Part shown: piece by piece, positions 9,758-50,997 of the stretch | Position numbering within the stretch: position 1 is the first letter of the stretch | How the letters are laid out: each line of letters begins with the position of its first letter | NCBI RefSeq assembly: GCF_030362855.1 | Contig: NZ_JAUCBP010000007.1 | Span: forward strand, 308,675-372,674 | Reading direction: 5' to 3' | DNA: 64,000 nt | From: Alteromonas arenosi | GTDB lineage: Bacteria; Pseudomonadota; Gammaproteobacteria; Enterobacterales; Alteromonadaceae | The notes under the pieces: generated by a model | What the model saw: only the letters and a program-made list of their open reading frames with translations | Databases searched by the model: none | What the model was told of the DNA's origin: nothing | Program-made: the position numbers and the translations under genes

Positions 9758-11557
9758 ATGCAAAATTACAAAGCACCACAACGAGATACGTTGTTTACTT
9801 TATATGAATTATTGGGTTTTGAATCCCATTATGCAGATCTGGGCTTCGAAGAGGTCAGCAATGATCTTGTGACCGCTATTTTCTCTGAGGCGGCAAAATT
9901 TGCAGAAAATACTCTAGCACCAATCAATGCGGTTGGTGACGAGGAAGGTTGTGGCTTCGATAATGGCGTAGTGACTACACCTACAGGTTTCAAAGAAGCC
10001 TATCAGCAGTATGTAGAAGGCGGCTGGCCATCAATGGCGCACCCCGAAGAGTACGGCGGTCAAGCACTACCTTACTCACTGGCTACATCTATGGCGGAGT
10101 GGTTCTCAGGTGCTAACCACTCGTGGGCAATGTACCCAGGGTTGAGTCAAGGCTGTATGGAAACCTTGAAGGCGCACGGTACCGACAAGCAACGCGAGAT
10201 GTTCTTACACAAATTGGTTGAAGGTAGCTGGACCGGCACCATGTGTTTGACTGAACCACACTGTGGCTCTGATTTGGGTATGCTTAAGTGTAAAGCAGAA
10301 CCCAATGATGACGGCACGTACTCACTGACAGGCACTAAGATCTTTATCTCAGCGGGTGAACACGACATGTCTGAAAATATCGTGCATATCGTCTTAGCAC
10401 GTTTGCCAGACGCACCGGCAGGCACTAAAGGTATCTCATTGTTTATTGTGCCTAAGTATCACGTTGACGAGAACGGCGAGAAAGGTGAACGCAATACAGT
10501 TGTTTGCGGTTCGATTGAACACAAAATGGGTATCAAAGGCAGCGCAACATGTGTGATGAACTTTGATGGCGCTAAAGGTCACCTGATTGGTGAGCCTAAT
10601 CGCGGCCTCAATTGTATGTTTACCTTTATGAACATGGCGCGTATCGGCACGGGTATGGAAGGTTTATCAGCTATAGAAGCGGCATTCCAGGGGGCCTTGG
10701 CATACGCCAAAGATCGTTTGCAGTTCCGCTCATTAACCGGTCGTAAGAACGAATCAGGCCCAGCTGACCCAATCATCGTACATCCAGACGTGCGCCGCAT
10801 GTTGTTGACGCAAAAATCATTACGTGAGGGTTGTCGCGCACTGGCCATTTATTGCATGAAAATGGTTGATGTGACCTTGTACGAAAAAGATGCTGAGAAG
10901 CGTCAGATTGCTGATGCTAAGTTGGCCTTGCTAACGCCAATCGTTAAAGCATTCTTAACTGAAACCGCCCAAGAGTGCACCAGCTATGGTATGCAGGTGT
11001 ATGGAGGTCACGGCTACATTAAAGAGTGGGGCATGGAGCAACTTGCTCGTGATACACGTATTTGTACCATGTACGAAGGTACAACAGGTATCCAAGCGAT
11101 TGACCTATTGGCGCGTAAAGTGGTCGGTAGTCAAGGCAAGTTGCTACAGGTATTCACTCAAGAGATCCGCACCTATTGTGCGAGCTTACGCGACAAGCAG
11201 CAGTTTAATGCGTGGGCTAACGCGGTAGAAAGTCATGTCGACGAGTGGGAGCAGCTCACTAACGACATCATGAAATCTGCCGCTAATAATCCTGATGAAT
11301 TGGGTGCCGCGGCGGTAGACTACTTGATGTATTCTGGTTATGTATCAGTTTCGTATTTCTGGCTGCAAATGGCTGTCACAGCACAACAGAAGCTGGATGA
11401 AGGCAGCACAGAAGTTGACTTCTATCAGGCGAAGTTGCAATCAGCGCAGTTCTACTTTGATCGTATGCTTACTCGCACACGTTCATTGGTTTCAGCGATT
11501 CACTCAGGTGCTGACAACCTAATGAGTATGAGCGAAGAAGCTTTCTATCAAGGTTAA
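9758..11557 (+). CDS. Long (~600 aa) acyl-CoA dehydrogenase with a C-terminal extension domain.
   Basis: 599 aa with an ACAD core (…CLTEPHCGSDLG…YEGTTGIQAIDL…) plus a ~150 aa C-terminal domain, as in FadE-like long ACADs. Confidence 0.85.
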   Translation: MQNYKAPQRDTLFTLYELLGFESHYADLGFEEVSNDLVTAIFSEAAKFAENTLAPINAVGDEEGCGFDNGVVTTPTGFKEAYQQYVEGGWPSMAHPEEYGGQALPYSLATSMAEWFSGANHSWAMYPGLSQGCMETLKAHGTDKQREMFLHKLVEGSWTGTMCLTEPHCGSDLGMLKCKAEPNDDGTYSLTGTKIFISAGEHDMSENIVHIVLARLPDAPAGTKGISLFIVPKYHVDENGEKGERNTVVCGSIEHKMGIKGSATCVMNFDGAKGHLIGEPNRGLNCMFTFMNMARIGTGMEGLSAIEAAFQGALAYAKDRLQFRSLTGRKNESGPADPIIVHPDVRRMLLTQKSLREGCRALAIYCMKMVDVTLYEKDAEKRQIADAKLALLTPIVKAFLTETAQECTSYGMQVYGGHGYIKEWGMEQLARDTRICTMYEGTTGIQAIDLLARKVVGSQGKLLQVFTQEIRTYCASLRDKQQFNAWANAVESHVDEWEQLTNDIMKSAANNPDELGAAAVDYLMYSGYVSVSYFWLQMAVTAQQKLDEGSTEVDFYQAKLQSAQFYFDRMLTRTRSLVSAIHSGADNLMSMSEEAFYQG

Positions 11558-11564
11558 TTGGAAT

Positions 11565-12506
11565 ATGCCTGAACATAGCGATATTCAATCTTGTTATGTT
11601 CAGGCGAAAGGTCTGCGACTGCATTATTTAATGCGGTCGCCCATTTCTACAGAAACGCAAACTCCAACACTTATATTTCTGCACGGTTTTCCTGAGTATT
11701 CAGGCGTTTGGCATCATCAACTCGACTTCTTTGGTCAAATAGCACGCGCTATCGCACTAGATTTACCAGGTTATAACCGTAGTGAAGGTCCTGGTGCGTT
11801 AGCTGAATTTAGCGTACCGAATTTAGTAGAAATAGTAGCCGAATTTATTCGTCAGGTCAGTGATGGTCAGCCAGTGGTGTTGGTGGCGCATGATTGGGGG
11901 GGAGCGCTGGCATGGCCGTTGGCTGCTCGCTATCCTGAATTACTCAGTCATTTAATCATACTCAACGCTGCACATCCGAGTACTTTTACCCGCGAAATGA
12001 TGCAAAACCCAAAACAGCGTGCGATGAGTGATTACATTCATACGTTCTTATCAAGCGATGCTGAAAAAGCTCTGGCAGATGATGATTTCGCATTGCTCAA
12101 GCAACATTCGATAACGCATGTTAAGGGTGGCATCAGCCCCGAGTTAGAAACGGGTTATCGCGATTCTTGGCAATGCGACGGGGTCTTGACCCGTATGCTT
12201 AATTACTACCGCGCTATGCCACAGTTATTTCCGCGAGAGGGCAGCGACACGAGTAGCCTAGACAAGCAAAACGGCGGGCCAACCAAGCAGCTTGCTGATT
12301 TTAAAATCCCACAGATATATATTCGAGTTCCCACGCTTGTATTATGGGGCGAGCAAGATAGTGCGTTTGATATTAGCGTATTGGATGGATTATCAGAATA
12401 CATTGATGACTACACTGAGCAACGCTTTCCAGATGCAACACATTGGCTGCACCATGAAGAGCCAGAAGCTATCTCATCAGCAATTAGCCAGTTTTTGGCA
12501 CGCTGA
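11565..12506 (+). CDS. Alpha/beta-fold hydrolase (epoxide-hydrolase-like).
   Basis: 313 aa with HGFPE, an HDWGG nucleophile elbow, and a C-terminal His (ATHWLHHEEPE). Confidence 0.8.
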   Translation: MPEHSDIQSCYVQAKGLRLHYLMRSPISTETQTPTLIFLHGFPEYSGVWHHQLDFFGQIARAIALDLPGYNRSEGPGALAEFSVPNLVEIVAEFIRQVSDGQPVVLVAHDWGGALAWPLAARYPELLSHLIILNAAHPSTFTREMMQNPKQRAMSDYIHTFLSSDAEKALADDDFALLKQHSITHVKGGISPELETGYRDSWQCDGVLTRMLNYYRAMPQLFPREGSDTSSLDKQNGGPTKQLADFKIPQIYIRVPTLVLWGEQDSAFDISVLDGLSEYIDDYTEQRFPDATHWLHHEEPEAISSAISQFLAR

Positions 12507-22832: not shown

Positions 22833-22909
<77 letters not shown>

Positions 22910-28108: not shown

Positions 28109-28348
28109 GTTTGTTTTAGTTTTTTTCCGACGCATTAATCCAGTGACACCCACTGTAAGACATCGTTTTCAGATGTGAAAAGAATTTTCAAGTGCCAAAA
28201 CATACCGTTCACGGGAGTGCTTTAGGTTTATTTCAACCAAAATTCAAGATACTTCCAGCTTCTTTATGATACTTCCAAGATTTTTAATTGAGTAATGTGC
28301 GCCACAACGCGACTGTTACAAGGTCAATTGAACAGGAGAAGCAATGCA

Positions 28349-28645
28349 ATGAAGCCACTTCCAATGGCCAACCAGTTAGGTCGATTAGGATTTGTCGTTT
28401 GTGTAACTGCGTTCACGTTAGGTTGCGTGAGTACACATGAGCGAAACTCATCTAAATATGCCAGCGATGGCACTGCAAATAATGATGACGGTGTGATTTG
28501 TAGAATGGAAAAGCGCACCGGCTCAAATATGATGACTCGCGTTTGTCGCACGGCTGAAGAGCGAGCTGTTTTAGAACAAGCTGGGCGTGAAGGTTTTGAG
28601 CGTTTACAAAGAACTGGTATCACCAGTAACGCTGATGGTCAGTAA
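28349..28645 (+). CDS. Small lipoprotein of unknown function (98 aa).
   Basis: Lipobox AFTLGC within MKPLPMANQLGRLGFVVCVTAFTLGCVST. AGGAGA lies 9 nt upstream of the ATG at 28349. The track ORF starts 54 nt earlier without an RBS. Confidence 0.5.
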   Translation: MKPLPMANQLGRLGFVVCVTAFTLGCVSTHERNSSKYASDGTANNDDGVICRMEKRTGSNMMTRVCRTAEERAVLEQAGREGFERLQRTGITSNADGQ

Positions 28646-28648
28646 ATC

Positions 28649-29131
28649 TTGGGAATAGGTGGGAAAATGAATATGAAAAAAGCGTTAGTGGTCACCGCAG
28701 GTGCGGTGCTTTCTTACTCATTGGTTTTTGAAGTAATCGCTAATCAAAAGCTACGGTTAAAAACCGATGTCATCGCTACAGTGATTGAATCTAGTGGGGC
28801 TGATGATGGCGCTTGGCAGCGCGCGTTTCCAGAGACACTGACAATGACCCGAGGGATGGAGCGTGCAGGCGTTAAAGGTTGTGGTATTTTTAATCTGCAG
28901 GTTGATGCGCAAGGCAATGTACAAGATGTAGATACAGATATTGTCGTTCCCAGTTTTGGTATTCGACGCCACGCTAGAGACTACCTAGAGTCTTGGCAGT
29001 GGGAGCCTACGGGCCAAAGCGGCACGGTTAAAGTTCGTTTAGATTTCTGTATTGGTGGCGCTACCAATGATGAAGTTCGCGAAATTTGTGAATATCAAGC
29101 GACGCTACCTTGCAGCAATAAGCGTTCATAG
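28649..29131 (+). CDS. Secreted protein of unknown function, possibly TonB-C-terminal-domain-like.
   Basis: A signal peptide (MKKALVVTAGAVLSYSLV) is followed by a ~90 aa region (FPETLTM…GIFNLQVDAQGNVQDVDTDIVVPS…WQWEP) that loosely resembles a TonB_C fold. The exact start is uncertain; the candidate Met codons are at 28649, 28667 and 28673. Confidence 0.35.
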   Translation: MGIGGKMNMKKALVVTAGAVLSYSLVFEVIANQKLRLKTDVIATVIESSGADDGAWQRAFPETLTMTRGMERAGVKGCGIFNLQVDAQGNVQDVDTDIVVPSFGIRRHARDYLESWQWEPTGQSGTVKVRLDFCIGGATNDEVREICEYQATLPCSNKRS

Positions 29132-29172: not shown

Positions 29173-30777
29173 TCAGCTGTTTTTTATTTGCTTAAACGTT
29201 AGCCCAAATTTTTGTAAATACATCCGCAGACGGTGTGAATCATTCTGTGTTTGCTTGCGCAATCGACTCTTGTCAAACAAAGCGCGGCTCGCTTCGGCGG
29301 CAGTAGTATATTGTTTACACGCTTGAATGACGCTTTGCAGCTGCATTTGATCAAAGTAATCTAATTCTTCAATAACCTCTTTGTCTAACCACTCTGTAAG
29401 GTCTACCTGCTTGTTTTCGATTTGCTGCTGCCAGCGATTTTGTAAGCGCTGAATTTCACGCTCCACTGTATTGCGTTCGATGCGTCCTGATGGGCTGAGG
29501 GTCGCCATCCGTGTAACACTTGCATTTAGATCTCTAAAATTTGCAGCCCACGTTGCACTTGGACTTTTGGCGAAGCTCAAGTACTGCTCTTTGGCAGCCA
29601 TACTAAAGCGTATATGGCGGTCTAACAGTCGAGCGCTCTGGTGCAGCTCAAATTCGAGATTAACTTCAAAGTCGTCCATTCGTTGTTTCAAAGAGGGGAG
29701 TCGCCACGACCAAATATCAATTCGAGCCAACAAATCCTCGCGAAAGCGACCCTGTTTAACTTCTTCTTGCAGATCTTTGTTGGTGCCGGCGATTAGCTGA
29801 AAGTCACTGTAAACTAAACTGTCAGCGCCTACGGGGTAAAACTCTTTAGATTCAATTGCATGCAGCAGCATGGCTTGCTCATCAAGGCCCAGCTCACCAA
29901 TCTCATCTAAAAACAAAACCCCTTTATCGGCTTGTTTTAAGTAACCACTGCGCGGATTAATTGCGCCGGTAAATGCACCCTTAACATGCCCAAAGAGTGC
30001 AGACATAGCCCCTTCACCTACCAGTGTTGCACAGTTTACCGGTACAAAGCTGGCGGTAACTTCTTTGCGTGTGGCTTTTAACTCGTATATCCGCCGCGCT
30101 AATTGTGATTTTCCTGCACCAGTAGGCCCTTGCAGCAAAATTGTATCTCGTGAACTTATAGCGACCTGTTCAATTTCCTCTATCATTTGGTTAAAAGCTA
30201 TGTCGCGAGTCTGAATTCCCGCCTTTAGGAATTCCGTTCCCGCTTGCGCCTGTTGTTGGAAGCGTTGCGATAGGGCATCGTACTTGGATAAATCTAAGTC
30301 AATTACCCGCAATATGCCTTTGGATTTTTCTTCGGGCGGCGCATTAAAGTCAGGGGAAACCTGAACCAGTCGAGCAGGGAATAATTGTGCTTCGCTGAGC
30401 AAAAACATACAGATTTGATTCACATGAGTGCCCGTAGTGATATTCAAATAGTAGTTTTCATTGTCTGTATCAAAGTTGTAATGCTGGCTAAACTCCAGTA
30501 GCCATGAATACACATCGGCAAAATCCCACGGATCACTCCACGCAGTTTCAACCAATGCAACTTGCGTGTGCGGCGATACTTGCTGTACATCTTCCATCAC
30601 CCGCTTAGCTAGGCGCAAATAATCAGGCTCATAGAGCATTTCCATGCGATCGACAGGAAATTCCGGGTGAGATACTAAGCTAATTGTCGGACGCCACGCG
30701 TGCCAGCGCTTATGGCCACGACCTTTGGCATCTTTAATAACACCAAGAATATTTATGACCACATTTCTCTTTGTCAT
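29173..30777 (-). CDS. rtcR: Sigma54-dependent transcriptional activator RtcR (CARF-like sensor + AAA+ + HTH).
   Basis: 534 aa. The N-terminal RtcR/CARF-like region (VVINILGVIKDAKGRGHKRWHAWRPT…) aligns with E. coli RtcR. The AAA+ domain carries the GAFTGA motif, and there is a C-terminal HTH. It is divergent from an rtcB operon. Confidence 0.9.
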   Translation of the reverse strand: MTKRNVVINILGVIKDAKGRGHKRWHAWRPTISLVSHPEFPVDRMEMLYEPDYLRLAKRVMEDVQQVSPHTQVALVETAWSDPWDFADVYSWLLEFSQHYNFDTDNENYYLNITTGTHVNQICMFLLSEAQLFPARLVQVSPDFNAPPEEKSKGILRVIDLDLSKYDALSQRFQQQAQAGTEFLKAGIQTRDIAFNQMIEEIEQVAISSRDTILLQGPTGAGKSQLARRIYELKATRKEVTASFVPVNCATLVGEGAMSALFGHVKGAFTGAINPRSGYLKQADKGVLFLDEIGELGLDEQAMLLHAIESKEFYPVGADSLVYSDFQLIAGTNKDLQEEVKQGRFREDLLARIDIWSWRLPSLKQRMDDFEVNLEFELHQSARLLDRHIRFSMAAKEQYLSFAKSPSATWAANFRDLNASVTRMATLSPSGRIERNTVEREIQRLQNRWQQQIENKQVDLTEWLDKEVIEELDYFDQMQLQSVIQACKQYTTAAEASRALFDKSRLRKQTQNDSHRLRMYLQKFGLTFKQIKNS

Positions 30778-30937
30778 GGCTCACTACTCAAGATATCAAT
30801 AAAAATACAAAGCTATCACAAATGATATAAATGTGGCTATTTTAAGTTGGTGTCACTTTTCTGTTTTTCAGCGATTAAAAATAAATAAGTAAATAAAAAC
30901 ATATAGATAGGGTTTTTATTTGATGTTTTTTCAAAAC

Positions 30938-30953
30938 TTGGCACTGCGCTTGA
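30938..30953 (+). promoter_or_regulatory. Candidate sigma54 (-24/-12) promoter facing the rtcB operon.
   Basis: tTGGCACtgcgcTTGAa compared with the consensus TGGCAC-N5-TTGCW. The -24 element and the spacing are perfect, but the -12 GC is replaced by GA. It sits between rtcR and the rtcB operon, about 140 nt upstream of the tRNA-like element. Confidence 0.35.
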
Positions 30954-31078
30954 AAACGATGTCGGCGTTAGTCGCTATTGATGTGTATGTTCTGCACACA
31001 GGTGCGTTAGGTGTTACCAATCGTATACCGCGAACTAACACCGACAGTTGTTCTGTCACCAGCCTTTCACGCTGGACG

Positions 31079-31152
31079 CTGTATGTAGCTCAGAGGTAGA
31101 GCTCGAAATTATGGATTTCGTGGACGTGGGTTCAATTCCCATCATACAACCA
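31079..31152 (+). ncRNA. tRNA-like structured RNA in the leader of the rtcB operon (Y-RNA/YrlA-like tRNA mimic, or a degenerate tRNA).
   Basis: A cloverleaf-compatible sequence. The acceptor strand CTGTATG pairs with CATACAA. D-arm TA-GCTC-AGAGGTA-GAGC. Anticodon-like stem CGAAA/TTTCG with loop TTATGGA. T-arm GTGGG-TTCAATT-CCCAT. It ends in CCA. It is not a canonical tRNA (see findings). Confidence 0.45.
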
Positions 31153-31177
31153 ATGTAAAAACTGGATAAGACTTAGC

Positions 31178-31210
31178 TTAAGTCAACAGGTTCGAACCCT
31201 GTTATGAACA
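31178..31210 (+). ncRNA. Second tRNA-like module: an isolated T-arm-like hairpin with a GGTTCGAAC loop.
   Basis: ACAGG-TTCGAAC-CCTGT (31186–31202) matches the tRNA T-arm consensus (GG-TTCGAAT-CC). It is preceded by hairpin GACTTA-gct-TAAGTC. No acceptor pairing was found. Confidence 0.3.
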
Positions 31211-31412
31211 AACTGTAAATTTGTTTAAACCCGACTGAGGGCCGTACTAACCGCTGTTAGTTACTCGCCTAGTCAACATTGATACACATTGCCAGTTGCA
31301 AGGATGCAACGTTAAACAACCGGCGCCGTGTATTGACCTTGATTAGCGCCAGTAATTTTCAGGTTTGCTACCCCCGAAGTCACATAATGTAAGAGGAATA
31401 TAGGAGGCTACG

Positions 31413-32588
31413 ATGGCCCAAATCAAACAAGGATTAGTGTTCACCACAGTAGTTGTGACACAAAACGAATTAGCGCTGATGTTTCGCGATGAGCAATTTG
31501 AAGCGGTGTTAGCGCCAGGTAAACATCGCTTTGTAAACGCCAGTAAAGCACTTACTTGGCAAGTGTTTGATACTAAAGGCTTGTACTTCACAGATGCCAA
31601 CGCCCAACGCTTGGTGCGTGAAAACGCTGAACTGCAAGAGCACATTCAGTTTTGGCAGCTAGCTAGCAATGAAGCAGGTTTGCTTTATGTTGATGGCCAA
31701 ATGCGCGGGATTGTAGCCCCTGGGGATAAGTTGTTCTTGTGGAAAGCAGCTGGCGAGTTGCGCCTAGAGCGGATCAACTTAGACGAGCAGCTTAGTGTTA
31801 ATACTGGCGTATTAACGGATATTAAAAACCGGGGTTTAAATGCAGCGACTAACTTAATTGCCAGTGCAGCAGTGGTGCGCAGAGTGCCTGTACTAGAAGC
31901 GCGGGTAATGGCGAATCATGTAGGGCTGTTGATGGTTGATGGCGCGTTACAAGAAGTATTGCAGCCTGGTGTTTACGGTTTCTGGCAGCTTAGCCAGCAT
32001 GTGGAAGTGAAAGTCTTCGATTTGCGTAAGCAAACCCTAGAAGTCGCAGGGCAAGAGATTCTGACAAAAGATCGCGTATCAATCAGAATCAATTTGACAG
32101 CTACTATCAAGGTCGAAGACGCAGTATTGGCAGCAGAGCAAGTGGATGACATTAACGCGTTCATCTACAAAAGCGTGCAGTTAGCGCTACGGGAAGCTGT
32201 TGGTACCAAAACGTTGGATGATCTTCTTGCTGACAAGTTGTACGTCAATGAGACGGTAAGTGCATTAGTGAGTGATGAGTTACATCAAGTGGGTGTGCGG
32301 TTGTGCCGGGTGGGGGTAAAAGACATCATTTTACCTGGCGAGATCAAAACGATTTTGAACAAAGTGGTCGAAGCGCAAAAAAGTGCCGAAGCTAACGTGA
32401 TCAAAAGACGTGAAGAAACCGCTGCAACCAGAAGCTTGCACAACACCGCGAAAATGATGGAAGGCAACACCACGTTGTTGCGCTTAAAAGAGTTAGAGGC
32501 GCTCGAGAAAGTCTCAGAGCGAGTAGGCAGCTTAAATGTTTACGGCGGATTGGAGCAATTATTGACCCAGACCGTCAAATTGAGCTGA
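31413..32588 (+). CDS. SPFH/band-7 (stomatin/flotillin-like) domain protein with an N-terminal triple ~60-aa repeat.
   Basis: 391 aa with AGGAGG 5 nt upstream. Three N-terminal repeats (LALMFRDEQFEAVLAPGKHRF / GLLYVDGQMRGIVAPGDKLFLW / GLLMVDGALQEVLQPGVYGFWQ) are followed by an SPFH core (…ILTKDRVSIRINLTATIKV…VKDIILPGEIKTILNKVVEAQKSAEANVIKRRE…). Confidence 0.75.
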   Translation: MAQIKQGLVFTTVVVTQNELALMFRDEQFEAVLAPGKHRFVNASKALTWQVFDTKGLYFTDANAQRLVRENAELQEHIQFWQLASNEAGLLYVDGQMRGIVAPGDKLFLWKAAGELRLERINLDEQLSVNTGVLTDIKNRGLNAATNLIASAAVVRRVPVLEARVMANHVGLLMVDGALQEVLQPGVYGFWQLSQHVEVKVFDLRKQTLEVAGQEILTKDRVSIRINLTATIKVEDAVLAAEQVDDINAFIYKSVQLALREAVGTKTLDDLLADKLYVNETVSALVSDELHQVGVRLCRVGVKDIILPGEIKTILNKVVEAQKSAEANVIKRREETAATRSLHNTAKMMEGNTTLLRLKELEALEKVSERVGSLNVYGGLEQLLTQTVKLS

Positions 32589-32655
32589 GTTACTTTTGCT
32601 GCCAAGGATGGCGGCAGTTTTACATTCAGGGAACATTAATACAGGAGGGAGGACA

Positions 32656-33435
32656 ATGACTGATGCAGTTAAGGCACGCATTGATGCCGAACTCAGCGCA
32701 ATCGAAAGCAAGTACAAGGTTCGCGTTTTAATGGCGGTTGAATCGGGTAGTCGGGCTTGGGGCTTTGCCTCAAAAGACTCCGATTATGATGTACGGTTTT
32801 TGTATATGCGCGAGCCTGAGTGGTATTTGTCGCCTTTCGTTGAATCCAAGCGAGACGTGATTGAATTGCCCATTGAGGATGAGCTAGACATCAATGGTTG
32901 GGATTTGCGCAAAGCTGTTAAGTTGATGGCAAAGTCAAACCCAGCATTATTGGAATGGTTTAGTAGTGACATCGTGTATCGGGAAGAAGAGGGCTTTCGA
33001 GCCACGTTTGCGCCATTATTGGCTGCGTATTATTCGCCCCGAGCGGGATTTTATCACTACTTACATATGGCCAAAGGTAACTTTCGGGAGTATCTCAAAA
33101 GTGACTTGGTCAAGACTAAAAAATACTTTTACGTGTTGCGTCCCATACTGTGTATGCGCTGGATAGAGTCGCATAGCAGTATTCCACCGCTGTTTTTCGA
33201 AACACTGGTGGACAAAACGGTCGAAGACACCGAGTTAACAAACGCTATCGCCGAGTTGCTAGTGCGCAAAAAGGCGGGTTTTGAGACTGATTACGATCGA
33301 CCGATACCGGTCATCAGTGCTTTTCTTAAAGCCGAACTGGCAAGACTCAGTGATTGTGCTGCGGCTATAGCCGTGAATCGCAAGTCTACCGATGACTTAG
33401 CTCGGTCCTTTGTACGTTATGTGGGAAACGCATAG
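32656..33435 (+). CDS. Minimal nucleotidyltransferase of the pol-beta superfamily, of the type found linked to RtcB.
   Basis: 259 aa. It has the NTase signature VESGSRAWGFASKDSDYDVRFLY (GS-x10-DxD). AGGAGGGAGG precedes the ATG at 32656. It lies directly upstream of rtcB, separated by a 27 nt gap. Confidence 0.7.
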   Translation: MTDAVKARIDAELSAIESKYKVRVLMAVESGSRAWGFASKDSDYDVRFLYMREPEWYLSPFVESKRDVIELPIEDELDINGWDLRKAVKLMAKSNPALLEWFSSDIVYREEEGFRATFAPLLAAYYSPRAGFYHYLHMAKGNFREYLKSDLVKTKKYFYVLRPILCMRWIESHSSIPPLFFETLVDKTVEDTELTNAIAELLVRKKAGFETDYDRPIPVISAFLKAELARLSDCAAAIAVNRKSTDDLARSFVRYVGNA

Positions 33436-33462
33436 CGCGTTGTAAAACAAAGAGGAATTACC

Positions 33463-34656
33463 ATGCCTGTGGTAACGCTGTTGCAAGCGAAAGAGCAACA
33501 AAAGCCGGTCAAAATATGGACCGATGAAGTGGAGCATGAAGCATTGGCGCAAATGCGGCGAGTGGCAAGCTTGCCATTCATTTATAAGCACGTTGCGGGA
33601 ATGCCGGATATCCACTTAGGGAAAGGTGCAACCGTAGGTTCGGTTATTGCGACTACTGATGCTGTGATCCCAGCTGCGGTTGGAGTTGATATCGGCTGCG
33701 GTATGAACGCAGTGCGCTTGTCCCTAAAGGCGAGCGATTTGCCTGACAACTTGGCGCGAGTTCGCGCGGCGATCGAAGATGTGGTGCCCTTAGGTGCTGG
33801 CGGATTTCATCGCAAAGAACAAATCCGCGGTGGCGATGCAATCGCGCGGAGCCTTGATGTTATTTTGGAAAAACATCCGGACATCAACAAACACGGTAAT
33901 GCGCGCAAGTATGCGCATCAGATGGGGACTCTGGGTTCAGGGAATCATTTCATTGAACTGTGTTTGGATGAAAATGATGATGTCTGGGTGATGTTGCATT
34001 CGGGCAGCCGTGGGATCGGTAACATGATTGGTCAGTACTTTATTCGTTTGGCCAAGCAAGACATGCGCGTGCATCAATTGAATGTGCCAGACAAGGAATT
34101 GTCGTATTTACGCGAAGGAACAGAACACTTTGACGACTATGTCGAAGCGGTAGATTGGGCGCAAGCATATGCCATGTATAACCGTGAGCATATGATGAAT
34201 GCAGTGCTAAGAGTCTTGGCTGACCATTTGAAGCGCTTTACGGTGACGAAAGAGGCTATTAACTGTCATCACAATTTTGTTGATCGCGAATGGCACGACG
34301 GCAACCACGTATGGGTTACTCGTAAAGGGGCAATTCGTGCGCGTGCAGGCGAGCTAGGTATTATTCCAGGCTCGATGGGCGCAAAGTCGTACATTGTTCG
34401 CGGTAAAGGTAATGCCGAGTCATTTTGCAGCTGTGCCCACGGTGCAGGGCGCAAGATGTCGCGTACCGCAGCAAAAAATCGTTTCAGAGTCAGTGATTTG
34501 GAGCGTCAAACGCAGGGTATTGAATGTCGTAAAGACAAAGGCGTGTTGGATGAAATTCCAGCGGCGTATAAGTCCATCGACAAAGTCATGTCACTGCAAA
34601 CTGATTTGGTGGACGTTGTTCATCAATTAAGACAAATCGTAAATGTAAAGGGTTGA
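33463..34656 (+). CDS. rtcB: RNA-splicing ligase RtcB (3'-phosphate/2',3'-cyclic phosphate to 5'-OH RNA ligase).
   Basis: 397 aa and collinear with E. coli RtcB (KIWTDEVEHEA…FIYKHVAGMPDIHLGKGATVGSVI…AAVGVDIGCGM…GSGNHFIEL…HSGSRGIGN…NCHHNF…AHGAGR). The metal-binding and GMP-His ligands are present. Confidence 0.95.
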   Translation: MPVVTLLQAKEQQKPVKIWTDEVEHEALAQMRRVASLPFIYKHVAGMPDIHLGKGATVGSVIATTDAVIPAAVGVDIGCGMNAVRLSLKASDLPDNLARVRAAIEDVVPLGAGGFHRKEQIRGGDAIARSLDVILEKHPDINKHGNARKYAHQMGTLGSGNHFIELCLDENDDVWVMLHSGSRGIGNMIGQYFIRLAKQDMRVHQLNVPDKELSYLREGTEHFDDYVEAVDWAQAYAMYNREHMMNAVLRVLADHLKRFTVTKEAINCHHNFVDREWHDGNHVWVTRKGAIRARAGELGIIPGSMGAKSYIVRGKGNAESFCSCAHGAGRKMSRTAAKNRFRVSDLERQTQGIECRKDKGVLDEIPAAYKSIDKVMSLQTDLVDVVHQLRQIVNVKG

Positions 34657-34768
34657 TTAGATTGAATAATCATCAATTAAACAGGAGCGTTACGACACTC
34701 ATCTAACACCTTATCTGGCGTTAGTTGAGTGTCAATTAACGCCAATATTGAAGTATAGGGTGAATGTG

Positions 34769-35959
34769 ATGAAACATTCCGAACGAGTTCGGCTGCGAGA
34801 GCAAGCTGAACGCCTCGATTTTGAGCGCAAAACTTTGCGTATCAGTTCGCGTGTAGTGAGACAATGCCAGGAAGACGTGATTGCGCAGAACTTGGCGCGC
34901 AAGCCGAAAGTTTTTCGCCATTCGAATACCTTGGTTTGTAAAGTTGCCGATAAAGCGCCAAAACTGGTTAAGGACCAGCATAGCTTGAATGCGGTTGAAC
35001 ACATGGCGCGTATTGCAACCTATCGCGATGTTGACTCATGGCAGCCACAGGGCAAAGGCTACCGCACCTTGTTGGTGTCACTGGCTGAACACTTGTTTGC
35101 TGCTTATCCAATGCCAGAGTTTATCTGGAGCGTGTTTTGGGCAACGGCTGATCGGCAGATGATGAAGCAGGTAGCTCGTATTGCTTATGGCACCAGTGTT
35201 TTTGCTTTGTGTGAATCAGGTTCACTACCTGTGCCGCTAACGCGTCGACAGTGCCATGCACTTATGCAGTTACCAGCTTCATTGAATTTTATCGAAGCCA
35301 TTCGTTATGTTCAGGTAATGAGCTGCGGTGGAAGCTACGCCTTGTTTCAAGCATGGAGCAAGTTGCGTCCCATTATGGTCATTCAAGAGCCAGCGATGGA
35401 GCAATTTTGGCAGCAAGTTTTACTCTGGTGCTGCAAACAAACGGAATTATCTGTTCAGGTGTTGCCTCAGCTCGTTGAATACTTGCGCGTTCGCAAGGGC
35501 GCTGATCGTCAGTTTGTGCTGCATAAACAAAGCTATAAAAATGTGCTTTATGCGATGTACGAATGGCAGCGACATGAGGCTATGCGCAAGAAAGCGAGTG
35601 GACAGAATTTGCCTGAATCTGGTTGGCTACCACTAGATTGGAAAGAGTCTATGAGCACCAAGCGCGGTCGCATTGTCACTCAGCAATGGCAGGTTGATGA
35701 GATCCTTTCAATCGAGCGTTTGCTCGCGGAGGGAATTGCCATGAACCATTGTGTTTATGGCTACCGCAATGCGATTAAGCGCGGCAATTGCTCGATTTGG
35801 TCGTTACGACATAATCAGCAGCGAGTAATTACAATCGAAGTTAACAATGCCTCTAGGCGAGTAGTGCAAGTGAAAGGTAAATACAATCGCGAGCCAAGCA
35901 ATGCTGAACGACAAGCTGTTGTGCACTGGGCGGTGAGCAACAATTTGCGTCTGAATTAA
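34769..35959 (+). CDS. Hypothetical protein (396 aa); the last gene of the rtcB operon.
   Basis: Same strand, 110 nt after rtcB. No family was recognised with confidence. The C-terminal region is NHCVYGYRNAIKRGNCSIWSLRHNQQRVITIEV…VVQVKGKYNREP. The start is ATG 34769; the track uses TTG 34748. Confidence 0.5.
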   Translation: MKHSERVRLREQAERLDFERKTLRISSRVVRQCQEDVIAQNLARKPKVFRHSNTLVCKVADKAPKLVKDQHSLNAVEHMARIATYRDVDSWQPQGKGYRTLLVSLAEHLFAAYPMPEFIWSVFWATADRQMMKQVARIAYGTSVFALCESGSLPVPLTRRQCHALMQLPASLNFIEAIRYVQVMSCGGSYALFQAWSKLRPIMVIQEPAMEQFWQQVLLWCCKQTELSVQVLPQLVEYLRVRKGADRQFVLHKQSYKNVLYAMYEWQRHEAMRKKASGQNLPESGWLPLDWKESMSTKRGRIVTQQWQVDEILSIERLLAEGIAMNHCVYGYRNAIKRGNCSIWSLRHNQQRVITIEVNNASRRVVQVKGKYNREPSNAERQAVVHWAVSNNLRLN

Positions 35960-35996
35960 GTGCATAGCGCAAAATAATCGACTAGACTAACCTTAT

Positions 35997-36035
35997 GCCG
36001 AACGCCACGTTGTCTTATGCAACGTGGCTTTCGGC
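35997..36035 (+). terminator. Long hairpin at the end of the rtcB operon; a possible terminator or RNA-processing site.
   Basis: GCCGAACGCCACGTTG-tcttatg-CAACGTGGCTTTCGGC forms a 16 bp stem with one mismatch. No T-run follows. Confidence 0.35.
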
Positions 36036-36059
36036 AACTCCAAAGGTTGAAGTTGTATA

Positions 36060-46541: not shown

Positions 46542-49151
46542 ATGGCAGAAGTATCCATTGAAAAACTCGCCAGTGATATTGGCACAACGGTTGACCGTCT
46601 GTTAACTCAGTTCAAAGACGCCGGTATTACTAAAAGTGCGTCTGATAGCGTGACTGAAGACGAAAAGCGTCAGCTGTTAGACTTTTTAAGCAAGCAGCAT
46701 GGCGGCACTGGCTCTGAAGCGCCCAAGCGCATGACATTGCAGCGCAAAACTACCAGCACATTAAGTGTTGGTAAGTCCAAAGCGGTCAAGGTTGAAGTAC
46801 GCAAAAAGCGTACTTACGTCAAGCGTACCGAAGTTGAAGAGCAGCGTTTAGCTGAAGAGGAAGCGCGTCGCAAGGCTGAAGAAGCAGAGGCGCGTTTGAA
46901 AGCTGAAAAAGAGGCGGCTGAAGCAGCTAAGAAAGCGGCTGAAGAGAAGGCGCGCAAAGCGGAAGAAGCGCGTAAGGCACAAGAAGCTGAACGTGCAGCG
47001 CGCGCTGAAAAGGCAAAGAAAGAGGCGGAAGAACGCAAAGCAGCAGAATCGGCACTGACGCCTGAAGAAAAAGCTGAACAAGAAGCGGCACGCAAAGAAG
47101 AAGAGCGACTTAAGAAGCAGCAGGAAGAAGAAGCACAGCGCAAGCTTGAAGAAGACGCTAAACGCGCTGCTGATGAAGCACGCAAGCTAGCGGAAGAGAA
47201 CGAACGTCGCTGGAAGGAAGAGGAAGAACGTCGTAAGCGCGAGGAAGCTGAAGAAGTTCACTTGCACTCCAACCGTTATGCTCAAGAAGCGGAAGACGAA
47301 GAAGACATGCAAGTTGAGCGCTCTTCACGTCGCCGCAAAAAGTCGCGCAAGAATGCCGGTGAAGACTTAAAACACAGCTTTAATAAGCCAGCACAACCCG
47401 TTGAGCGTGTTGTTAAACTGGGTGAAACCATCACTGTAGGTGAGTTGGCGAGTCGTTTGGCAGTTAAAGCGAACGAAGTTATCAAGACCATGATGAAAAT
47501 GGGCGAGATGGCAACGATCAACCAAGTACTTGATCAAGACACTGCTGTACTTGTGATTGAAGAAATGGGTCACAAGTATGAGTTGGTGAATGACAACGCT
47601 TTAGAAGAAGAATTGATTGCAGATTCTAACTCGGGTGAGAAAACGACTCGTGCGCCGGTTGTAACCATTATGGGTCACGTTGACCACGGGAAAACGTCAC
47701 TGCTTGACCATATTCGTCGCGCTAAAGTAGCAGACGGCGAAGCGGGTGGTATTACCCAGCATATCGGTGCATACAGCGTAGAAACTGATAAAGGTCGAAT
47801 CGCATTCTTGGATACGCCTGGACACGCAGCATTTACAGCAATGCGTGCGCGTGGTGCTACCGCAACTGATATCGTTGTATTGGTTGTGGCGGCTGATGAC
47901 GGCGTTATGCCACAGACTAAAGAGGCGGTTCAGCACTCGCGTGCAGCGGGCGTACCATTGATTGTTGCGGTCAACAAAATGGATAAAGAGACAGCTGACC
48001 CCGATCGCGTAAAAACCGAGCTTTCACAATTAGAAGTTATTTCTGAAGAGTGGGGCGGTGAGCACCAGTTCGTCAATGTATCTGCCAAAACGGGTATGGG
48101 GATTGATGAATTACTCGATGCTATTACCTTGCAAGCAGAGCTACTTGATTTACAAGCGGTTAGCAAAGGCGCAGGTCGCGGTATCGTTATTGAGTCACGC
48201 TTGGATAAAGGTCGTGGTCCAGTTGCATCGGTATTGGTGCAGCAAGGTGAGTTGCGTACTGGTGACATTTTACTGTGTGGCGAAGAGTACGGTCGTGTGC
48301 GTGCGATGCGCGATGAGAACGGTAAAGAAGTTAAGGTTGCAGGTCCATCAACGCCAGTAGAAGTACTCGGCCTTTCAGGCGTACCTATTGCTGGTGAAGA
48401 CGCGTTAGTGGTACAAGACGAGCGTAAAGCGCGTGAAGTTGCCGCTAAACGTCACGCTAAACAGCGTGAGCTGAAACTAGCCAAGCAGCAAAAAGCGAAA
48501 CTGGAAAACATGTTCGCTAACATGGAAGCCGGTGATGTGAGCGAGTTGAACGTTGTACTTAAAGCTGACGTTCAAGGCTCTGTAGAAGCGATTTCTGAAT
48601 CACTTATCAAGCTGTCTACTAGCGAAGTTAAGGTTAACATCGTCGGTAGCGGTGTGGGTGGTATCACGGAAACTGACGCCAGCTTAGCTGCGGCTTCGAG
48701 TGCAATTATCGTAGGCTTTAACGTTCGTGCAGATGCTACAGCACGCCGCGTGATTGAAGCTGAAGAAATTGACTTGCGATACTACAGCGTAATCTACAAC
48801 TTGATTGACGAAGTTAAGCAAGCGATGAGCGGTATGCTTGCGCCAGAGTTTAAACAAGAAATCATGGGACTTGCCGAAGTGCGTGATGTGTTTAAATCAC
48901 CGAAACTGGGTGCCATTGCAGGTTGTATGGTTACCGAAGGTACGGTTAAACGCAGTAACCCAATCCGCGTATTGCGCGACAACGTCGTAATTTACGAAGG
49001 TGAACTTGAGTCATTGCGTCGCTTTAAAGACGACGTACAAGAAGTTCGCAACGGTATGGAGTGTGGTATCGGCGTGAAGAACTACAATGATGTAAAAGTC
49101 GGCGACCAGATTGAGGTCTTCGAGGTTGTTGAAGTTAAACGCGAAATCTAG
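46542..49151 (+). CDS. infB: Translation initiation factor IF-2.
   Basis: 869 aa with an N-terminal Glu/Ala/Lys-rich low-complexity region, G-domain motifs ([18 protein letters not shown]) and a C-terminal beta-barrel. Confidence 0.95.
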
Positions 49152-50608: not shown

Positions 50609-50730
50609 ATCGTTATTTACTACCAACTTTACTTGCGTTAAGCGGCGGCATCGCTATAATACGCGCTCTTTTGGAATGGGCTGAATTAGTGATTGGTCAT
50701 TCCGGTATTTAAACTCATTAGGAGAATCCT

Positions 50731-50997
50731 ATGCTCACTAAAGAACAAACAGCAGAAATCATTGCTGAATATGCAACTAAAGAAGGCGACACTGGTTCAC
50801 CTGAAGTACAGGTTGCATTGTTAACGCACAACATCAACAAGCTTCAAGGTCACTTTGCGAGCAACAAAAAAGACCACCACTCACGTCGTGGTTTGTTACG
50901 CATGGTAAGTCAGCGTCGTAAAATGCTTGACTACCTTAAAGGCAAAAACGCTGAGCGTTACACTAGCCTAATCAAGCGTCTTGGCCTACGTCGTTAA
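50731..50997 (+). CDS. rpsO: 30S ribosomal protein S15.
   Basis: 88 aa and about 70% identical to E. coli S15 (…[24 protein letters not shown]…RLGLRR). Confidence 0.95.

Follow-up and report, generated by a model that had tools for sequence, protein, structure and literature searches.

A 64-kb stretch of the Alteromonas arenosi genome (contig NZ_JAUCBP010000007.1; hereafter the window, all coordinates being window positions) contains at 29173-36036 a putative stress-inducible, RtcR-controlled RNA repair operon whose four genes are preceded by a structured leader of about 420 nt (about 30960-31381) that includes a complete tRNA-like cloverleaf. The locus is very probably a member of the class of RtcB operons that combine a Band-7/SPFH gene, the tRNA-like RNA called b7a-tRNA and a gene for the nucleotidyltransferase RlaP, and very probably has a role in RNA repair; we base this assignment on the Pfam, NCBIfam and PADLOC matches of its five proteins, on the tRNA-like RNA and on the published description of the class. 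The features by which the class is recognized are all there, namely an RtcB ligase, a Band-7 gene on the same strand, a tRNA-like RNA adjacent to it and RlaP within the operon. A first-pass annotation, made from the letters of the sequence alone, had proposed an RtcR/sigma54-type RNA repair operon whose transcript would be expected to open with a tRNA-like RNA, and that proposal stands; its reading of the sequence features is confirmed by our analysis, while its interpretation is only partly supported.

The rtcR gene (29173-30777, minus strand) is intact and divergent from the operon. Its product is a predicted sigma54-dependent activator with the CARF-like N-terminus and GAFTGA motif noted in the first pass: a CARF-type N-terminal RtcR domain (Pfam RtcR, 4e-71) is followed by an AAA+ domain (Sigma54_activat, 1.5e-47) in which GAFTGA is present in the translation, and by a C-terminal helix-turn-helix region. 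It passes the NCBIfam RNA_repair_RtcR equivalog model with 744 bits (cut-off 650) and matches the PADLOC model RtcR--CARF_AAA_HTH at 3.8e-233; only RtcR was matched by PADLOC, the four operon proteins being absent from its models of known defence systems. The putative sigma54-type promoter TGGCAC-N5-TTGA (-24/-12 elements; 30939-30953, plus strand) is present as predicted, though the pattern as such occurs in the window at chance frequency (two hits against 0.92 expected), so we rejected the idea that it is significant by itself; its significance lies in its conservation only. The same element stands at a fixed distance before the first leader module (module A, below) in every related locus in which the leader is transcribed first (about 20 loci), with a -12 element that reads TTGA or TTGT and not TTGC, and it was not found in those related loci where the leader sits in the middle of an operon. 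The second hit in the window, an exact TGGCAC-N5-TTG match at 46580-46593, is within chance expectation. We note that two of the related loci, L053 and L057, have the element before the leader with no RtcR detected within 6 kb, and the leader there may be regulated in trans.

The four genes of the operon all lie on the plus strand. The first, preceded by the Shine-Dalgarno sequence AGGAGG (31402-31407), encodes an SPFH/Band-7 ("slipin") protein of 391 aa (31413-32588; Pfam Band_7, 1e-31). The second encodes RlaP (32656-33435; Pfam RlaP PF10127, 9.6e-86, a family titled "RNA repair pathway DNA polymerase beta family"), which is 259 aa long when read from the ATG at 32656, a start that fits the 259-aa homologues (the mechanical open reading frame begins with a TTG at 32596), and which carries the GS-x10-DxD nucleotidyltransferase motif reported in the first pass. 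The third encodes a 397 aa RtcB 3'-phosphate/5'-OH RNA ligase (33463-34656) that matches Pfam RtcB over its full length (4.5e-128); RtcB joins 3'-phosphate or cyclic phosphate ends to 5'-OH ends. The last (34769-35959) encodes a 396 aa protein that had been thought to belong to no recognized family, but a hidden Markov model search finds a PcfJ domain (PF14284, 4e-15) in its C-terminal 100 aa. The gaps between these genes are 67, 27 and 112 nt, so the same-strand arrangement first described holds, although the spacing of 27–110 nt given with it does not. RlaP also matches phrog_14344 (1e-75) and RtcB matches phrog_1075 (1e-151), and a sequence search of the PDB gave nothing for RlaP or the PcfJ-domain protein. 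The absence of RtcA and of a Ro protein, both claimed at the outset, was borne out: tblastn with two RtcA proteins from related loci found no match in the 64-kb window, and there is no TROVE match in the five operon proteins or in six flanking open reading frames, to which that scan was limited.

The non-coding stretch between the promoter element and the Band-7 gene is about 460 nt long and holds the structured leader. At 31079-31152 (plus strand) the leader includes a b7a-tRNA-type RNA with a full cloverleaf, the one of approximately 75 nt noted in the first pass, which ARAGORN and the Rfam tRNA model both call (the calls span 31079-31151). ARAGORN names it tRNA-His(atg), with an "anticodon" AUG at 31111-31113, and it scores 58 bits with the Rfam model, whose gathering threshold is 29; the ordinary tRNA-Met of the window (CAU, 22833-22909) scores 64 bits. 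It has a C1·A72 mismatch, and its 3' A-C-C-A is encoded (31149-31152). A survey of one genome per species gave 62 loci with a Band-7 relative at 34-93% identity, mostly in Gammaproteobacteria (Alteromonadaceae, Cellvibrionaceae, Halieaceae, Microbulbifer, Hahella, Endozoicomonas, Shewanella and Aliikangiella); all of them were mapped for counterparts of the window's five proteins and for tRNAs called by ARAGORN, and 64 Band-7 upstream regions were examined. In 59 of the 64 a plus-strand tRNA-like gene lies no more than 750 nt upstream of Band-7, and in three loci (L005, L007 and L008) two full tRNA-likes stand in tandem. The cloverleaf covaries strongly: over 48 copies, 95.2% of the cells are paired, compared with 72.1% after shuffling (0/500) and 36-43% with slid partners, and compensatory changes occur in 17 of the 21 pairs. 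Little or no variation is seen in these copies at U8, A14 and G18, in the D stem (GCUC/GAGC) or in the stem and loop of the T arm.

No position of the anticodon loop, by contrast, is conserved. The 50 seven-nt loops show 22 different "anticodons", and in 11 of 61 copies the loop has six nt; A34 is found in 16 of the 50 and U33 in only 39, and position 34 has an entropy of 1.97 bits out of a maximum of 2, as against about 0 in the T-loop and D-stem. The window and the related locus L001 have proteins that are 93% identical and yet differ in anticodon (AUG and UUG, respectively). At the 1-72 pair 26 of 48 copies have a mismatch, and among the 11 combinations seen none is preferred (C·A in 7); only about one copy in five encodes an N-CCA 3' end. 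The tertiary nucleotides expected of a decoding tRNA (U8, A14, G18 and the T-loop) are thus in place, but a conserved anticodon and seven-nt loop are not. Because the cloverleaf covaries and the anticodon loop is unconstrained, we read this RNA as a structural mimic of tRNA, in which the elbow and helices would matter, and not as a decoder; selection appears to keep the acceptor, D and T arms, which form the elbow, and to ignore the anticodon loop. Origin from an initiator tRNA, a thought raised by C1·A72 and the frequent CAU, was rejected since the 1-72 pair is unconstrained; the elongator-like D stem and anticodon stems without three G-C pairs also oppose it.

The tRNA-like RNA is one of several modules in the leader, which as a whole folds with a z-score of -4.5. 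At its 5' end is module A (30960-31046, plus strand), a branched structure with an outer stem, a hairpin P2 and a bulged hairpin P3; its minimum free energy is -32.8 kcal/mol (z -2.9). In relatives this is an element of roughly 100 nt that lies between a few bases and about 35 nt 5' of the first tRNA-like module, and in the main group of loci it ends a few nt before the tRNA 5' end. A family alignment of 31 sequences (A2, folded with RNAalifold) gives a branched structure of 25 pairs, 19 of them with compensatory changes, and 94.7% of its cells are paired, compared with 77.1% shuffled (0/500) and 33-38% with slid partners. A covariance model built from these sequences (R1) picked up 19 further loci, each with a single copy that lies 350-600 nt upstream of Band-7 and on the same strand.

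Downstream of the cloverleaf is a second, partial tRNA-like module (31162-31203, plus strand), made up of a UGGAUAA segment, a short hairpin (31170-31184) and a canonical T-arm (31185-31203; ACAGG UUCGAAC CCUGU). The T-arm is the second hairpin described in the first-pass annotation, and it has counterparts elsewhere: an extra T-arm outside the called tRNA is present in 51 of the 64 leaders, usually 45-70 nt 3' of the first T-arm, its stems covary, and in the relatives a short hairpin and a UGGUAAA-like segment come before it. We infer that the latter could supply a D-loop GG able to dock on the T-loop, which would make this module a tRNA elbow without an acceptor stem. The rest of the leader is module E, a long closed structured domain (31233-31381, plus strand; fold z -3.2). 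In related loci it takes up the remaining 150-350 nt before the Band-7 ribosome-binding site, and its 3' strand stops shortly before the Band-7 start; in the window some 20 nt separate it from the Shine-Dalgarno sequence. Domain E is closed in the main group by a recurrent long-range helix, GAGGCCCAU/GUGGGCCUC, of which many compensatory variants occur (GAGGCUCAU/GUGAGCCUC, GAGGUUCAU/GUGAACCUC, GAAGCUCAU/GUGAGCUUC and GGGGCUCAU/GUGAGCCCC), and the window's clade has the equivalents GAUGGGAGG/CCUUUCAUC (in L002) and GAUAUCAGG/CCUGAUAUC. In the window itself we read the putative closing helix as GACUGAGGG (31233-41) paired with CCCCCGAAGUC (31371-81). Rfam 15 gave no family other than tRNA in the window leader (E up to 10) or in eight related loci, and in particular no Y RNA, YrlA, tmRNA or T-box, and over the whole window no Y RNA family came up to the gathering threshold. 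Modules A and E are two further large covarying RNA domains that could enter the RNA family databases.

The surveyed loci have several gene orders. The window type, RtcR | leader-Band-7-RlaP-RtcB(-PcfJ), is found in L001, L002, L004-L008 and L063-L067 (L003 is similar without RlaP); RtcR | leader-Band-7-RtcB-RtcA ... RlaP is found in L009 and L010; RtcR | RtcB-RtcA-leader-Band-7 is the commonest; and in about a dozen loci the leader and Band-7 stand alone, with no rtc gene within 6 kb and with neighbours on the other strand. About 45 of the 62 have RtcB, RtcR, RtcA or RlaP within 6 kb, in several gene orders. The leader travels with the Band-7 open reading frame in every position, whether operon-first, mid-operon or stand-alone, and its tie is therefore to Band-7 and neither to the promoter nor to RtcB: it also precedes mid-operon Band-7 genes and the dozen or so that have no rtc gene nearby. 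Nor does the adjacency of these genes look fortuitous, a possibility that the first-pass annotation had raised against itself, for it recurs in several gene orders. The system is real and widespread, and the window holds a compact example of it.

Several of the related loci are more elaborate than that of the window. In L011 (7255-12077) and in L035 the genes after Band-7 encode an HD protein, a minimal NTP_transf_2 nucleotidyltransferase, a PolyA_pol+HD protein of the CCA-adding type, two RlaP paralogues and a DUF3087 protein. In several Cellvibrionaceae and relatives (L017, L018, L021, L022, L023 and L047; e.g. L023:1130-4288) the leader and Band-7 are just downstream of an array of 5-18 tRNA genes; three of these loci have a second RtcB gene (68% identical to that of the window) amid the array, and some (e.g. 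L023 and L047) have a CCA-adding-type enzyme, RlaP and a third RtcB-like gene (27-30% identity) after Band-7. They look like a combined tRNA-backup and tRNA-repair island. A similar set of functions is found in the regulon of the Anabaena sp. PCC 7120 translational-stress repressor TrcR, which controls rtcB, a slipin-family gene, two GNAT genes and a 26-gene tRNA operon (PMC10272220); the set brought together there by regulation parallels the genes that are physically clustered in the surveyed loci. The Shewanella-type locus L009 has a second, different Band_7 protein (11323-12360; 3e-15) downstream of its RlaP gene.

RtcA was identified with Pfam in three of the loci and then by tblastn in 25, where it lies within about 6 kb of Band-7, mostly in the order RtcR | RtcB-RtcA-leader-Band-7. 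It was not found by tblastn in the 64-kb window or in L001-L008, and its absence is a trait of the window's subclade. The first-pass annotation had suggested that Band-7 and RlaP replace RtcA, and we rejected this since 25 of the 62 loci encode both RtcA and Band-7. RlaP was named for its association with RNA ligases by Burroughs and Aravind in 2016, as recounted in PMC12776372; in Pseudomonas its gene lies between rtcB and rtcA, and according to that report two Pseudomonas RlaP enzymes add one or two nucleoside monophosphates to RNA 3'-OH ends, with damaged RNAs preferred (PMC12776372). The survey bears on how the 3'-OH product of RlaP reaches a 3'-phosphate ligase in operons that have no RtcA.

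The Band-7 protein is one of a very large group (over 7,900 relatives with E-values up to 1e-10) that NCBI names "slipin family protein", but unlike stomatin or HflK/C it has no hydrophobic segment (maximum Kyte-Doolittle value 1.2). Its AlphaFold model (pLDDT, the predicted local distance difference test score, 77) has three five-stranded beta units (10-53, 78-122 and 160-203), an SPFH core and a long C-terminal helix. The three units are mutually similar (pairwise z 8-9, with 0/500 shuffles matching the observed score), as the N-terminal triple repeat reported in the first pass would lead one to expect. In Foldseek searches against solved structures the best E-values belong to SPFH proteins that form rings or cages (stomatin, 5e-15 over about 225 columns), and the longest alignments among the types of match, 416-473 columns, are to the major vault protein (MVP; E 5e-11 to 3e-8). 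The model thus suggests a soluble protein shaped like a small MVP, a resemblance in domain order that is not proof of a vault-like shell. Some close relatives from Pseudoalteromonas and Vibrio (P0025-P0034 and P0042) have 534-551 aa, and one has 683 aa, compared with about 390 aa; they may carry extra N-terminal beta repeats.

In the PcfJ-domain protein an all-helical N-terminal region (about 280 aa) is followed by a C-terminal PcfJ domain of the alpha/beta type that has the invariant motifs EG..HCV..Y, G.CSIW, T.E and Q..G..N. In its model (pLDDT 88.5) the C-terminal domain has the order beta-beta-alpha-alpha-beta-beta-beta-alpha and is weakly GNAT-like, in a match that covers only the N-terminal half of the GNAT fold and that places the invariant Q..G..N where the GNAT acyl-CoA loop would be; we regard the apparent resemblance as a lead only. 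The full-length family is rare, with about 20 clusters in 5.8 billion sequences. Its members (37-76% identity) keep the last position of the operon in L001, L002, L063/L064, L066 and L067 while the flanking genes vary, so that the gene belongs to this operon in no fewer than five distinct genomic settings, and the idea that it is a fortuitous neighbour was rejected on account of this recurrence in differing flanking contexts. Among distant members, one adjoins two RlaP genes in L071 (PcfJ-RlaP-RlaP), and another, on a phage-like contig (P0014, JGI 3300056388), is near genes for Thg1 (a 3'-5' tRNA repair polymerase), PTH2 (a peptidyl-tRNA hydrolase), an RNA ligase (PF09414) and an S49/NfeD-type protease; other distant members have no RNA-repair context. 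In L069 and L070 distant PcfJ genes adjoin, in the same arrangement, a large Peptidase_U32+DUF3656 gene; the U32 family includes RNA hydroxylation factors. Five PHROG families of unknown function contain the PcfJ domain, and our literature search found no paper that links it to RNA repair (the matches to "pCFJ" were Caenorhabditis elegans plasmids). The linkage offers a first functional context for a domain that is widespread in phages and conjugative plasmids and has no assigned function.

The 2016 abstract of Burroughs and Aravind reportedly suggests that SPFH/Band-7 modules, together with "a novel tRNA-like molecule", may be cofactors that act as scaffolds, in a parallel with Ro and its Y RNAs. 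The association of Band-7, b7a-tRNA and RtcB was described in that work, according to bioRxiv 10.1101/312249, and the architecture is therefore not the unrecognized one that the first-pass annotation took it to be, the class having already been predicted computationally (Burroughs & Aravind 2016, via later papers). A 2026 survey of P. aeruginosa SPFH proteins notes that PaFlo8 is embedded in the rtc locus, and the window locus shares with that locus and with the class as a whole an RtcB, a Band-7 gene with a tRNA-like gene upstream, RlaP, and an RtcR with a sigma54 promoter. It differs from the class in having no RtcA and a PcfJ-domain gene as last cistron, and module A, the second elbow, domain E and the MVP-like repeats are not mentioned in the secondary sources on the class. 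The multi-module leader RNA (absent from Rfam), the elbow-constrained and anticodon-free mimic, the MVP-like domain order and the PcfJ linkage appear to go beyond the accessible literature.

More distant parallels are also instructive. Like E. coli rtcR-rtcBA, the window locus has an RtcR that passes the equivalog model, a divergent sigma54-type promoter and RtcB, but it has no RtcA and adds three proteins and a structured leader of roughly 420 nt. With Salmonella rsr-yrlBA-rtcBA it shares predicted RtcR control and an RNA-binding scaffold gene and a tRNA-like noncoding RNA before RtcB, a combination proposed to be an RNA-repair cofactor; unlike it, the window operon and its flanks (the extent of that scan) have no Ro/TROVE gene, and Rfam gives no Y RNA or YrlA match. 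The tRNA domain of the Salmonella Y RNA is embedded in the Ro-binding stem, whereas the window RNA is a free-standing full cloverleaf accompanied by other modules. With the eukaryotic vault (MVP with vault RNA) the Band-7 protein may have in common the N-terminal five-stranded repeats, the SPFH "shoulder" and the long helix of its model, in a soluble protein that is genetically paired with small structured RNAs; it has only three repeats in 391 aa, its TM scores are low, and Pfam detects no vault repeat. The vault protein TEP1 carries a Ro-like TROVE domain.

These observations are consistent with the following mechanism, which we put forward tentatively and to which we give rather less than an even chance of being correct in its specifics. 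RNA damage would yield tRNA fragments with 2',3'-cyclic phosphate ends, which would activate RtcR and give rise to a transcript from the sigma54 promoter; 5' tRNA halves with such ends are the proposed RtcR signal or ligand (PMC10159003, PMC7790460). The tRNA-like units would probably be cut out of the leader by tRNA-processing enzymes, and the excised structured RNAs, together with the other leader modules, would be the RNA partner of a soluble SPFH protein that would assemble into oligomeric rings or cages, much as Y RNA is the partner of Ro. Broken tRNAs would be held on the resulting ribonucleoprotein (RNP) particle, which would be a platform for RlaP and RtcB, the former refilling one or two nucleotides at trimmed 3' ends and the latter sealing 3'-phosphate or cyclic phosphate ends to 5'-OH ends. 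The SPFH scaffold and the end-extending nucleotidyltransferase of the first-pass annotation are both reasonable readings and have their place in this scheme. The PcfJ-domain protein would be a lineage-specific (Alteromonas) accessory factor that acts on the same RNA substrates, and its domain may have an acyl-transfer or acyl-binding role.

A number of points weigh against this overall explanation of the locus. Band-7/b7a-tRNA systems are known from a decade of computational prediction, with no experiment on any of them, and the b7a-tRNA was described as being without experimental validation as of 2018 (bioRxiv 10.1101/312249). The activation of RtcR in E. coli requires both RtcA and RtcB (PMC9650030), and because the operon here has no RtcA its regulation may differ from that of E. 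coli. RtcB cannot join the 3'-OH that RlaP leaves, a matter that the RlaP authors themselves call unresolved (PMC12776372), and here RlaP is found in an operon without the RtcA cyclase. The window's own module A is divergent: it was not found by R1 with default filters, and with filters off it scores 10.5 bits (E 0.016, over 30972-31033). Its homology is argued from position, from architecture and from intermediate sequences that share with it the invariant GGURCR...YGUAYNCC core, the model score being weak. The MVP alignments have low TM scores (0.36-0.40), and Pfam finds no vault repeats in the Band-7 protein. No Band-7 relative was found in viral contigs, in a search made with only two peptide patterns. 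Finally, there are the stand-alone leader-Band-7 loci, because of which the Band-7 RNP may have a role that is not tied to ligation.

Other explanations can be set beside the platform mechanism, and the strongest of them takes the leader to be a processing signal that acts in cis. RNase P and RNase Z/E would cut at the tRNA-like units, as happens at similar elements of other long transcripts, freeing module A and setting the 5' end of the Band-7 mRNA, and domain E would be a cis-acting element of the 5' untranslated region for Band-7 translation or stability, so that none of these RNAs would be a trans-acting cofactor. Conservation falls on what tRNA-processing enzymes recognize (acceptor, T arm, D arm and elbow), with the anticodon loop left free, and the conservation pattern is fitted equally well by this explanation; moreover, module A of the main group ends a few nt before the tRNA 5' end, domain E ends near the Band-7 Shine-Dalgarno sequence, and the leader is always found with the Band-7 open reading frame. 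However, the second module has no acceptor stem and should be a poor RNase P substrate, yet it is kept in 51 of 64 leaders, three loci have two complete tRNA-likes, and the covarying structure of modules A and E, some 250 nt more, is left unexplained by a processing signal alone. We therefore think it somewhat unlikely that the RNAs serve only in this way, and we note that such processing is compatible with the platform mechanism.

The platform mechanism also has a more ambitious form, in which the whole leader (about 30960-31381) would be the RNA subunit set of a vault-like RNP, packaged by the MVP-shaped SPFH protein and capturing damaged tRNAs for RlaP and RtcB, with the GNAT-like PcfJ protein of the Alteromonas lineage adding a chemical step on tRNA ends or aminoacyl-tRNA. 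This is an unlikely proposal; were it true, the PcfJ domain would be an RNA-repair or tRNA-directed enzyme. How an SPFH protein or a tRNA look-alike might contribute to RNA ligation can in either form be approached through handles that the survey provides and that can be tested, namely an RNA selected for its elbow and an SPFH protein with a vault-like domain order.

The dozen or so leader and Band-7 loci with no RtcB, RtcR or RlaP within 6 kb, and the varied position of the pair relative to rtcB (before it, after rtcA, or across rtcR), could also mean that leader and Band-7 form a separate stress module, a cage that stores or sequesters RNA and is merely co-regulated with rtc genes or inserted beside them. 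Against this, about 45 of the 62 loci do have rtc genes or RlaP within 6 kb, in several orders, and the richer versions add a CCA-adding-type enzyme, HD proteins and RlaP copies after Band-7; such recurrence in spite of rearrangement argues for a functional link, and we judge full independence to be quite unlikely.

The diversity of the anticodon loop suggests yet another role, that of a decoy or sentinel in which the tRNA-like RNA baits anticodon nucleases, so that its cyclic-phosphate halves would bind the RtcR CARF domain and strengthen induction, or the toxin would be soaked up, the loops diversifying in an arms race. Near-identical loci do differ in anticodon (AUG in the window, UUG in L001), 22 anticodons are found overall, and 5' tRNA halves with cyclic phosphate are the ligand proposed for RtcR (PMC10159003), under whose control the RNA appears to be here. 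Yet the six-nt loops of 11 of 61 copies, the loss of U33 in 11 of 50, the common A34 and the maximal entropy at position 34 look like the absence of constraint and not like mimicry of true targets, for which a canonical loop is required; a single bait anticodon per genome would cover a single toxin specificity, and many copies do not adjoin RtcR. We consider this role improbable. Lastly, that the RNA is a working isoacceptor, or a degenerate or genuine tRNA-His that lies by chance beside unrelated genes, has the ARAGORN and Rfam tRNA calls and the encoded ACCA in its favour but can be given almost no credence, since the same arrangement recurs across many families (59 of 64 loci), orthologous copies do not keep the same anticodon, bacterial tRNAs do not have anticodons of the AUG type, and 26 of 48 copies have a mismatch at the 1-72 pair. 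Genome annotations should accordingly not count such genes (the window copy is called tRNA-His(AUG) by ARAGORN) among the decoding tRNAs.

The operon is followed by a 17-bp hairpin at 35996-36036 on the plus strand (fold dG -29 kcal/mol, z -7.8). A long hairpin had been said to close the locus, and it does, but almost all of it lies beyond 35997, the end first assigned to the locus. It has no following U-tract, and a terminator scan that requires a T-run passed over it; it may be a terminator or a stabilizer. The flanking genes are unrelated to the operon and include pntAB, two small open reading frames without a Pfam match, and genes for a 7TMR-DISM GGDEF-EAL protein and an OmpA-like protein. 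The two small open reading frames (116 and 160 aa; 28295-29131) lie between pntB and rtcR and have signal-peptide or lipoprotein-like N-termini. Farther away, the window contains a ribosomal protein S15 leader (RF00114, 51.9 bits) at 50673-50784.

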